This document shows positions 34,020-36,982 of a stretch of DNA of 64,000 bases, piece by piece. The notes under the pieces are model-generated. The model was not told where the DNA came from and did no database searches. It saw only the letters and a program-made list of their open reading frames with translations. Location: contig CAVOHZ010000001.1 in NCBI GenBank assembly GCA_963695855.1, positions 1 through 64,000 of the forward strand, in the 5' to 3' direction. Source of the stretch: an uncultured Nitrososphaerales archaeon (GTDB taxonomy: Archaea; Thermoproteota; Nitrososphaeria; Nitrososphaerales; Nitrososphaeraceae). Each line of letters starts with the position of its first letter. The stretch's first letter is position 1. A program made the translations under genes and the position numbers.

Positions 34020-35204
34020 TTGTTCTCAAGATCAAGAGAAAAGTATTCATTGATAAGTAATGGTAACTATCACAATAACTTGAGAATCTGGTTCGATATT
34101 CTTACTCCCAAACAGATAATGTTCTTCAAATATTTTGTTGAAGAACTGGAAGAATCTGGACATGAAATATTCTGTACTGGGCGAGACTACAGAGAGGCAA
34201 TAGAGTTAGCAAGAATAAAAAAAGTAAGAATAAAAATAGTTGGCAAACATGGAGGAAATGACAGATATGAAAAATTAGTAGCTAGCAGTGAAAGAATTCG
34301 AAAACTTGCAGACATTATCAACTCCTTTGAACCTGATCTAACTGTCTCCTTTTCCTCCCCAGAAGCTTCAAGAGTGTCATTTGGATTAGGTGTAAAACAT
34401 TATATCTTCAATGATTCTCCACATGCATTGGCTGTAGCGAAACTAAGTGTCCCAATTTGTGACCGGCTTTTCTGTCCATGGATTATACCATATAAGGCAT
34501 GGTTATGTCTAGGAATTAATAGAGAAAAAATTACTAGATATAGAGCAATTGACCCTGTTGTCTGGCTAAAAAGAGAGATGGAAAAAATTAAAGAATGTGG
34601 AGGATGGTCAACTACAAGATCGAAGAAAAATAAAACAGGCCAATTCACTATCTTAATTAGGCCGGAAGAAGTAAAGGCATCCTATATAACAGATAACAAG
34701 AATCTGAAAAATTCTGTAACATTGATTGATAGTATTGTTAAAAATTTTTCCTTGTACTCTAAGGTATTGATTTTGGGAAGATACCAGGATCAAATAGATT
34801 TTTTCAAACAGAGATATGAAAATAAAGTTCAAATGCTCGAAAATGTAGTGGATGGAACCTCGTTATTAAGAGAAATAGATCTGTTTATTGGTGCTGGAGG
34901 TACTATGAGTGCGGAGGCAGCATTACTTGGTAAACCAGTCATTTCTATTGCACCTATTAGCTTTTACGTGGAAAACTTTCTTATAAGATGCGGACTTGTA
35001 AAGAAAATCAGAAATGAAAAGGAGTTAACCAGGTATACGCACAACATTTTCTCTAAAATTAAAAACGAGAAAAAATATTTTAAAAATAACGATAGACTAA
35101 AAAAATACAAAGTACCGGCATTTCAAAAAAGATTGTTTGAAAAATCTTTAAAATTTATAGATAGCATGGAAGATCCAATAATTCAATTTAAGAAATTTAT
35201 TTGA
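34020..35204 (+). CDS. DUF354-family GT-B fold protein
   Basis: IWFDILTPKQ, VGKHGG, FSSPEASRVSFGLG, GAGGTMSAEAALLGKPVIS. Confidence 0.85.
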   Translation: MFSRSREKYSLISNGNYHNNLRIWFDILTPKQIMFFKYFVEELEESGHEIFCTGRDYREAIELARIKKVRIKIVGKHGGNDRYEKLVASSERIRKLADIINSFEPDLTVSFSSPEASRVSFGLGVKHYIFNDSPHALAVAKLSVPICDRLFCPWIIPYKAWLCLGINREKITRYRAIDPVVWLKREMEKIKECGGWSTTRSKKNKTGQFTILIRPEEVKASYITDNKNLKNSVTLIDSIVKNFSLYSKVLILGRYQDQIDFFKQRYENKVQMLENVVDGTSLLREIDLFIGAGGTMSAEAALLGKPVISIAPISFYVENFLIRCGLVKKIRNEKELTRYTHNIFSKIKNEKKYFKNNDRLKKYKVPAFQKRLFEKSLKFIDSMEDPIIQFKKFI

Positions 35205-35252
35205 AATTCATAACATTATAATTCAAGTTATTAATACGAAATAATGCCCGGA

Positions 35253-35350
35253 AGCCCGGTGGAGGGAAAAATAAATTTCCCGTCGAGTGTAGCGGCCAAG
35301 CATAAAGGCCTTTGGAGCCTTTGACCCCAGTTCGAATCTGGGCCGGGCTA
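35253..35350 (+). tRNA. tRNA-Gln(UUG) with a 25-nt intron (35263-35287) between positions 10 and 11
   Basis: Spliced product AGCCCGGTGG|TGTAGCGGCCAAGCATAAAGGCCTTTGGAGCCTTTGACCCCAGTTCGAATCTGGGCCGGGCTA folds as a cloverleaf: acceptor AGCCCGG/CCGGGCT, anticodon stem AAGGC/GCCTT, T-arm CCCAG-TTCGAAT-CTGGG. Confidence 0.92.
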
Positions 35351-35473
35351 ATTTTATGTAGTGCAATTAATGTTTCCGTTCATTTAGAACTTAATATCTG
35401 AATTACCTAATATTAATAAAACCTAAAAAAATATATTTCTTTCTCATTTTAAAGACACTATTAATAAAAAATA

Positions 35474-36982
35474 TTATTTATCGGATTTACATTTTTCAAT
35501 TACAAGTTGTCGGAGATTTTTAAAAGCCTCATCTACCATAGTAATTCTTTGAGATAAGATATGTTCTGTATCTATAAGTAAATTTTCTATTGATTCCAGC
35601 ATTCTTTTCTGTTCATTCGGATTCGGAGAACCTGTTGATTTTTTTAAGTAAATAGAATTTTCTGAAATTGTGCCTCTAATGATTGTATGTAAATCATCTG
35701 TATCTATATGTATATTAATAGAATCAAGGATCTTTGAAAGTTCTTCCTTTGGAATGTCCTTTAAACTAATACTATTGTTATTTTTTATCACATATTGTAC
35801 AAGATGTCCTACCAATTTGTGAGCTTGCCGAAATGGAATATTGTATTTCATCACCAACTGTTCAGCAATATCTAAAGAGACCGCATAGCTCTTATTAGCT
35901 TGCTCTAATGCGATGTTTTTATTCACTTTAAATGTATCTATTATCCCTACCATTATTATCAAAGAATTTGTTACTATAGCAGTAGATTTCCACAATAAGG
36001 GTTTGAGATCCTGCAGGTCTCTACTATAACCAGTTGGAAGGCTCTTTATTATTGTCAATGCTGAAAGGAGATTGCCGGTAACAATAGATGAATGTGAACG
36101 TAAAATTTCTAAGGGATCTGGATTTTTCTTTTGTGGCATTACACTCGATGTTGAACTATATTTGTCTGCAAGTTCGATATAATTAAATTCTGAAGTAGAC
36201 CAGAGAATAAAATCTTCGGCAATTCGACTTAAGGAAGTCATTAAGATTGCCTGTGAAGATAAAAATTCGATAAGTACATCTCTAGAACTAGTAGCATCAA
36301 TGGAATTGTCTACCAGTCCATCAAATCCTAGCAGAGAAGCGGTGTATTTTCTGTCTATAGGTATGCTAGTACCACCAATTGCACATGCACCCAAAGGAGA
36401 TTTATTTATCCTATCAAAAATCATATTAAAGCGTTCGAGATCTCTTAACAGACTGTAAGAATAAGATAGTAGATAGTGAGAATACGTGCCTATTTGTGCC
36501 TGCTGTAAATGAGTATATAGAGAGACAATCGTTGTTTGATATTCTTTTGATCTCGCTATCAAGGATCTTAGTAGGTTAATTATGAGGTTGGATATAACTA
36601 GGAGGTCATCCCTTGTTTTCATTATAATATCTAATGCCACCTGGTCATTTCTGGAACGTCCTGTATGCATCTTACCACCCACTTCTATGCCTATATTTTG
36701 GGTTACTACTGCTTCAATCTGTTCATGAATATCTTCAGAGGAATCTGATGATAGTATCTTTCTAACCTTCGCCTGATCAATATAATTATCCTTTAGTTCA
36801 CTTAAAGAAGAGAGAAGTCTTGATAATTCTTGATGGTCTAAAATTCCAATTTTGTTTAACATGATACAATGTGCTTGAGTTCCAACAATATCGTAATAAA
36901 ATAAGTTAATATCATCATCTAGGGAAGAAAGATAATCAAGAACATTTTTATCTAGATTTTCGGTCTGTCTAGATCTATACAA
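35474..36982 (-). CDS. argH: Argininosuccinate lyase
   Basis: EDIH, MHTGRSRNDQV, YTHLQQAQ, STSSVMPQKKNPD. Confidence 0.95.
   Translation of the reverse strand: MYRSRQTENLDKNVLDYLSSLDDDINLFYYDIVGTQAHCIMLNKIGILDHQELSRLLSSLSELKDNYIDQAKVRKILSSDSSEDIHEQIEAVVTQNIGIEVGGKMHTGRSRNDQVALDIIMKTRDDLLVISNLIINLLRSLIARSKEYQTTIVSLYTHLQQAQIGTYSHYLLSYSYSLLRDLERFNMIFDRINKSPLGACAIGGTSIPIDRKYTASLLGFDGLVDNSIDATSSRDVLIEFLSSQAILMTSLSRIAEDFILWSTSEFNYIELADKYSSTSSVMPQKKNPDPLEILRSHSSIVTGNLLSALTIIKSLPTGYSRDLQDLKPLLWKSTAIVTNSLIIMVGIIDTFKVNKNIALEQANKSYAVSLDIAEQLVMKYNIPFRQAHKLVGHLVQYVIKNNNSISLKDIPKEELSKILDSINIHIDTDDLHTIIRGTISENSIYLKKSTGSPNPNEQKRMLESIENLLIDTEHILSQRITMVDEAFKNLRQLVIEKCKSDK

Follow-up and report, generated by a model that had tools for sequence, protein, structure and literature searches.

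Within the window, by which we mean the whole 64,000-nt stretch of DNA analysed, a gap of 270 nt separates a DUF354-family gene (34020-35204, + strand) from an argininosuccinate-lyase-like gene (35474-36982, − strand). It holds a tRNA body with anticodon UUG that is displaced 25 bases from its own 5′ acceptor strand. That strand, AGCCCGG at 35253-35259, and its exact complement CCGGGCT at 35343-35349 are complementary at 7/7 positions, and the heptamer has just two occurrences in the 64 kb (both acceptor strands), against 0.68 expected. The stretch 35253-35350 is a real tRNA-Gln(UUG) gene from an archaeon of the ammonia-oxidiser type, predicted to be split by a 25-nt archaeal intron between tRNA positions 10 and 11, and is laid out as follows:

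35253-35262, + strand: exon 1, tRNA positions 1-10 (acceptor 5′ strand 35253-35259, then U8, G9 and G10)
35263-35287, + strand: intron of 25 nt, exactly the stretch missing in the intron-less orthologues L025 and L026
35288-35350, + strand: exon 2, tRNA positions 11-73 (anticodon UUG 35312-35314, 3′ acceptor strand 35343-35349, discriminator A 35350)
35352-35355, + strand: T-run directly 3′ of the gene, a likely archaeal transcription stop

The flanking genes are an ordinary chromosomal context with no sign of a mobile element.

Removal of the insert in silico yields a 73-nt product with a 7-bp acceptor stem, D, anticodon and T arms and the anticodon UUG, which ARAGORN calls as tRNA-Gln(ttg). 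It is identical at 66/73 and 65/73 positions to L025 and L026, respectively, which come from other families of the same order, and the first 18 nt are the same in all three. The sequence-only reading had proposed the gene, the intron bounds 35263-35287, a cutting rule (after the second base of each bulge) and the resulting spliced 5′ end, and the comparison with intron-less orthologues and with relatives upholds each of them. The steps through exon joining rest on sequence and comparison, and splicing in vivo is predicted; among the RNA-labelled sequencing runs listed, shares were small (≤0.13).

Standard scans mishandle this gene, as had been anticipated. On the window, ARAGORN calls tRNA-Gln(ttg) at 35278-35349 and so puts the 5′ end wrong, with an acceptor stem that, by our reading of the sequence, pairs at 2/7 positions. 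The Rfam tRNA model gives a match above its cut-off at 35286-35342 (35 bits) which is partial, covering model positions 9-63 only. The poor stem at the ARAGORN start and the Rfam match beginning at model position 9 both agree with the earlier observation that the tRNA body lacks its 5′ acceptor strand at the expected place. Taken at face value, the ARAGORN call would favour an intron-less gene or pseudo-tRNA starting at 35278, the upstream AGCCCGG being a coincidence. We give this practically no credence: only 2/7 acceptor pairs could form, the upstream heptamer is a perfect partner and unique in the window, and the intron architecture is conserved and covaries in many genomes. Moreover, the genome (3.55 Mb in 11 contigs, ~31% G+C, 99.9% complete) holds no other tRNA-Gln(UUG) gene that could be found by ARAGORN with and without introns, the Rfam tRNA model, an acceptor-pair search, or intron-less and intron-bearing 5′-end patterns. 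A separate intron-less copy, which the sequence-only reading had named as evidence that would speak against an intron here, is thus not to be found by these searches. Genomes with such genes appear to lack tRNA-Gln, which distorts the tRNA counts used for genome quality. ARAGORN also made odd calls elsewhere in this genome, at G000:C8:2734-2821 and C8:91508-91603, reporting a tRNA-??? with a 2- or 4-base anticodon or a 'tRNA-Stop(tta)' with an intron; at both places the program has probably misparsed an additional tRNA gene with an intron.

The predicted splice motif spans the 5′ part of the gene and the intron:

35257-35260, + strand: central 4-bp helix, 5′ strand C5 G6 G7 U8 (paired in 100% of cells, 46 sequences)
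35261-35263, + strand: first 3-nt bulge GG/A, with the predicted 5′ splice site after 35262 (cutting rule from a review)
35264-35281, + strand: intron hairpin, arms GGGAAA 35264-35269 and TTTCCC 35276-35281 (6 bp), loop 35270-35275
35282-35285, + strand: central helix, 3′ strand GUCG (GCCG in 127/128 distinct 5′ segments, this gene included)
35286-35288, + strand: second 3-nt bulge AG/U, with the predicted 3′ splice site after 35287, so that U35288 would become U11

The hairpin, the helix CGGU/GUCG, the segments GGA and AGU and the heptamer AGCCCGG, all noted in the sequence-only reading, are present at these coordinates. According to the available part of a review, the archaeal bulge-helix-bulge (BHB) motif is a 4-bp helix with a 3-nt bulge on either side, and at the canonical site the first two anticodon bases belong to the 4-bp helix; it follows that the helix has its exon strand immediately 5′ of the first bulge, cleavage coming after the second base of a bulge. 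The geometry here fits that rule, the helix being built from the exon bases immediately before a 3-nt bulge: there is a 4-bp central helix with two opposite 3-nt bulges and its exon strand directly 5′ of the first, and an inner helix h′, here 6 bp, closes the intron side. The central helix is weak in this gene, with 2/4 pairs being G.U wobbles where relatives mostly have GCCG, and this counts against the motif. Among 128 distinct sequences the window's GUCG is the only one-sided central-helix variant. Two further one-sided variants were seen, ACCG in L198 (G034:C47), which turns U8.G into U8-A, and GCUG in L003 (G014:C12), which makes a G6.U wobble.

An outer helix of the strict hBHBh′ motif was looked for and amounts to at most 1 bp (C4-G12), C3 and U13 being unpairable. 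Because only C4-G12 can pair there, the predicted motif is of the relaxed HBh′ kind and not strict hBHBh′. It shares with the HBh′/hBH relaxed motifs (Marck and Grosjean 2003, as presented in the available part of the review) a single bulge between the central helix and the intron hairpin, while at the other splice site, which abuts the central helix, no proper outer helix is present; it differs from them in that the exon strand comes from the acceptor stem, nt 5-7, plus U8. With the outer helix missing, cleavage would depend on a broad-specificity enzyme.

The genome encodes proteins suited to this. There are two tRNA_int_endo proteins, an EndA alpha subunit of 184 aa (PF01974 and PF02778), whose nearest solved relatives are 2cv8, 3p1z_B and 2zyz_B, and an EndA beta subunit of 113 aa with PF01974 only and no N-terminal domain, together with one RtcB ligase. 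The larger subunit is closest to solved crenarchaeal enzymes. The review associates relaxed motifs and non-canonical introns with the alpha2-beta2 type of endonuclease found in Crenarchaeota and Thaumarchaeota, and the subunit make-up of the host EndA would accordingly suggest broad specificity.

In this gene the position of the junction is ambiguous by one base. G35262 and G35287 are identical, so that a 9/10 junction (intron 35262-35286) would give the same product as a 10/11 junction. Relatives separate the two: among the 128 distinct 5′ segments (both Gln genes of this genome are counted), the base matching 35287 varies (A 56, G 31, C 24, U 17), and a 9/10 junction would place this variable base at position 10 and break the 10-25 pair, whereas a 10/11 junction always takes G10 from exon 1. 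The bulge rule, with its cut after the second bulge base, also speaks against 9/10. We consider a 9/10 junction very unlikely and place the predicted junction at 10/11, because only this choice, with G10 from exon 1, preserves the D-stem in relatives.

The intron structure is conserved beyond chance, and both helices covary. At position 6 and its partner, the 128 distinct sequences show 109 G:C, 19 C:G and 0 mismatched combinations, the search pattern having permitted all four combinations. Formal pair counts over 46 distinct relatives show pairing in 100% of cells for the central helix, where one pair has changed on both sides, and in 94.5% for the first four hairpin pairs, of which 4/4 have changed on both sides; these both-sided changes in the hairpin resemble those in the anticodon and T stems counted alongside. 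For the whole 18-pair structure, 0/500 shuffles reached the observed values and all slid controls were far lower. The hairpin itself is highly variable in sequence (127 distinct cores), and its closing stem reaches at least 3 bp in 122/128 genes versus 10/128 after shuffling. This pattern bears on whether the insert might be retained in the mature tRNA as an extra D-stem hairpin. We hold retention to be highly improbable: some orthologues do without the insert and agree with the spliced product, the helix would upset the acceptor stem and the G10-U25 pair, and selection preserves a 4-bp helix with acceptor bases and two 3-nt bulges that would be useless in a mature tRNA. An intron spliced out at 10/11 is the reading that we retain.

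The same site is used elsewhere in this genome. The paralogue tRNA-Gln(CUG) (G000:C10:631158-631289, − strand) shows this architecture at the identical site, its hairpin being unrelated in sequence. It carries three predicted introns: at 10/11, in the D-loop (flanked by repeated GGCTAA) and at the canonical 37/38 position. This gene is missed by ARAGORN, scores 18.9 bits (E 0.48) with the Rfam tRNA model, and has its own leader element, AGCUCG. Within the genus, a full-length match to the window's gene was found in 20/24 other sampled genomes, the four without a match being 69-87% complete. BLAST searches in sixteen other families of the order returned tRNA-Gln with the intron in 10 cases and without it in 15 (14 with enough upstream sequence to score).

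A pattern scan of species representatives returned at least 119 stretches, all tRNA-Gln by inspection; those listed comprise 107 UUG, 11 CUG and one unassigned gene. Depositor labels for the 119 matches listed are 50 Nitrososphaeria-type, 41 Bathyarchaeia or Bathyarchaeota, 9 Woesearchaeota, 5 Thermoproteota, 4 'Methanosarcinales', 2 Nanoarchaeota, 2 unspecified archaeon, 2 bacterial, and one each of Aenigmatarchaeota, Methanomethylicia, Hadarchaeota and Sifarchaeum, figures that come from a pattern fixing much of the motif and from related genomes that are not independent, some with doubtful MAG labels. Some of these labels are probably binning errors. L134 (CP070692.1) and L137 (DASPPK010000076.1) carry bacterial-MAG labels, yet hold archaeal intron-bearing tRNA-Gln genes, and the sequences of L104 and L059 are almost identical to genes whose archaeal labels differ from theirs, which points to mistakes in the binning or assembly of public MAGs.

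Among the 201 genomes of a phylum sample drawn evenly, 5 (the present one counted) show the intron pattern and 114 the intron-less pattern. Because of these proportions, the predicted 10/11 intron is best described as widespread but patchy. The rarity of the site implied by the sequence-only reading does not hold, since many genomes of the genus share it, other families of the order have it again, and it turns up under further phylum labels. Nor is 10/11 exceptionally far 5′, as that reading had supposed: the available part of the review already knows introns at position 3/4. In everything that we sampled, the 10/11 site is limited to tRNA-Gln, and it is common to distant lineages.

As far as the available parts of the reviews go, non-canonical protein-spliced introns, relaxed motifs, multi-intron tRNAs and the link to a heterotetrameric endonuclease are well described in Crenarchaeota and Thaumarchaeota, and such introns are regarded as late and mobile. 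Catalogues of crenarchaeal and thaumarchaeal examples are credited there to Sugahara et al. 2008/2009 and Chan et al. 2011, and the positions named in the review text available are 3/4, 20/21, 22/23, 25/26, 29/30, 30/31, 45/46, 53/54, 56/57 and 59/60. The accessible description of tRNAscan-SE 2.0 reports a Thaumarchaeota-trained intron covariance model, an extension of candidates by 60 nt to cover introns close to the ends, and a count of 107 non-canonical introns for the genomes of Thaumarchaeota. The intron described here resembles those known from Crenarchaeota and Thaumarchaeota, as the same part of the review presents them: it is short, lies outside 37/38, has a BHB-type motif, occurs in a genome with alpha and beta endonuclease subunits and has D-arm introns in several other tRNA genes for company. 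It differs from the non-canonical introns of that text in its position, 10/11 not being among those named there, in being Gln-specific in our sample and in its spread across distant lineages. In the literature searched, partly available as it was, we found neither a 10/11 tRNA-Gln intron nor its recurrence across phyla nor a leader that mimics the acceptor strand, a weak negative given that tRNAscan-SE 2.0 Tables S2/S7, GtRNAdb and SPLITSdb may list the site. Databases probably already contain the copies of this intron in relatives. As an intron it belongs to a known class and is unremarkable within it; what is new is a conserved leader element coupled to it.

Two features lie upstream of exon 1:

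35209-35222, + strand: BRE/TATA-like promoter block CATAACATTATAAT, conserved upstream at loci of the genus (putative promoter role)
35246-35251, + strand: leader hexamer GCCCGG, which repeats tRNA nt 2-7 and is able to pair with nt 66-71 of the 3′ acceptor strand

Transcription would start at about the first base of the leader hexamer, if the start lies ~26 nt from the TATA centre. A hexamer was scored as present when it pairs at 6/6 positions (Watson-Crick or G.U) with nt 66-71 and lies within 30 nt upstream. The counts were made by script and not as column-wise pair counts, because the spacer is variable and MAFFT leaves the hexamers out of register. By this measure, 128/132 distinct intron-bearing genes have the hexamer, the other four pairing at 5/6, compared with 0/34 intron-less genes and with 3/132 intron-bearing genes after shuffling of the upstream sequence. 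The BLAST-derived set from other families, which was not selected for the motif and is hence less biased, gives 10/10 intron-bearing versus 1/14 intron-less genes. Intron and hexamer also go together inside single genomes: both accompany the UUG gene of G031 and of G037 and are absent from the CUG gene there, while G030 shows the reverse. An intron-less tRNA-Gln(CUG), L196 (G035:C12), has a G.U-rich upstream hexamer, GUCUGG, that pairs at 6/6 with the 3′ acceptor strand; it may be the relic of a lost 10/11 intron or a matter of chance.

The hexamer follows the acceptor stem, and genes with CGGGGC as their 3′ strand have GCCCCG. Where the hexamer is not an exact copy, it differs by C-to-U changes only (GCUCGG, GCCUGG, GCCCUG, GUCUCG, GCUUCG, GUCUUG and GCUUUG), and these variants still pair with the G-rich 3′ strand. 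The spacer between hexamer and position 1 ranges from 0 to 22 nt. Because the variants are all C-to-U, the pairing is kept and the spacer varies over this range, selection on a leader RNA helix, rather than a decaying DNA repeat, is probably real.

Several other uses of the leader copy were tried and rejected. Pairing with the true 5′ strand through the CCGG palindrome is not available to genes with an AGCCCCG acceptor, which nevertheless pair with the 3′ strand. A composite acceptor stem (nt 1-4 with 69-72 plus three leader bases with 66-68) would leave a 1-nt spacer to span the helix, which we judge it could not do. The copy is not a true exon 1 either, since no U8-G9-G10 follows it at the other junction.

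Three other genes of the same genome have D-loop introns: tRNA-Arg(CCU) (G000:C10, ~640840-640935, + strand), tRNA-Glu(UUC) (G000:C3, ~92640-92737, + strand) and tRNA-Asp(GUC) (G000:C8:1-136, − strand, at the contig end). Their Rfam matches are partial. By inspection, none of these Arg(CCU), Glu(UUC) and Asp(GUC) genes has a leader copy of its acceptor strand.

Nucleotides 5-7 of the central helix belong to the acceptor stem, and because of this the splice motif and the cloverleaf are mutually exclusive. We propose the following sequence of events. In the precursor, the leader hexamer (35246-35251) would occupy the 3′ acceptor strand and thereby release tRNA nt 5-8 (part of the acceptor stem plus U8), which would pair with the last four paired bases of the intron. 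The resulting 4-bp helix with two 3-nt bulges, together with the inner intron hairpin, would form a relaxed BHB of the HBh′ kind; the heterotetramer-type splicing endonuclease would cut after the second base of each bulge, and RtcB would join the exons into a normal 73-nt tRNA. With the intron strand gone after splicing, the true 7-bp acceptor stem would form and RNase P would remove the leader. As in the split and permuted tRNA genes of Nanoarchaeum equitans and Thermofilum pendens, at least as the available sources describe them, sequence absent from the mature tRNA would pair within the precursor and shape the endonuclease substrate; unlike those, whose leader and trailer pair to build the motif, the leader here lies outside the motif and copies the 5′ acceptor strand. 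The account as a whole, namely a sole tRNA-Gln(UUG) gene with a protein-spliced 10/11 intron and a relaxed BHB, with the leader decoy step included, is with high probability the best explanation of the locus. For the particular role of the hexamer as a decoy partner that frees nt 5-8, we lean only slightly towards acceptance.

Folded freely with its leader, the precursor adopts a minimum-energy structure that contains the leader helix (−40.8 kcal/mol), versus −40.0 kcal/mol when the true acceptor stem is forced. If leader helix and central helix are both imposed, the energy is −36.6 kcal/mol, a less stable state than that of the free fold. By ViennaRNA pair probabilities, leader pairing is preferred in 99/100 unspliced genes and also in 97/100 genes spliced in silico. 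With the leader favoured both before and after splicing, two-dimensional energies therefore do not show a switch. Such energy models are poor on bulged protein-binding motifs and on tRNA tertiary structure.

The persistence of leader pairing after in-silico splicing (97/100) is also what a different role would lead one to expect, the hexamer being real and selected yet serving to delay or guide RNase P, to protect the 3′ end, or surviving as a slowly decaying relic of the intron's origin; intron-less L196, with its G.U-rich 6/6 hexamer, would be a possible relic of this sort. A relic, however, would not keep its pairing across phylum-level labels and over spacers of 0-22 nt with only C-to-U changes. 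Any role apart from splicing has to face the near-complete coupling of the hexamer to the one intron whose helix needs acceptor bases, and the D-loop-intron genes for Arg, Glu and Asp in the same genome, which by inspection do without a leader copy. On this evidence we rate such other roles as rather unlikely, though deserving of some weight, and keep the decoy partner as our working explanation of the hexamer.

A broader joint reading, which we put forward tentatively and with less than even confidence, is that of an old, isotype-specific 10/11 intron of Nitrososphaeria, Bathyarchaeia, DPANN and others, which would be spliceable only by means of a leader mimic and so would amount to an undescribed switch enforcing splicing before 5′ maturation. 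The decoy model makes a simple prediction, that splicing of the precursor depends on the leader decoy. A non-canonical site confined to a single isotype under several phylum labels is a poor fit with the late, transposable introns of the reviews, and the joint reading, if true, would contradict the view of non-canonical tRNA introns as recent and mobile.
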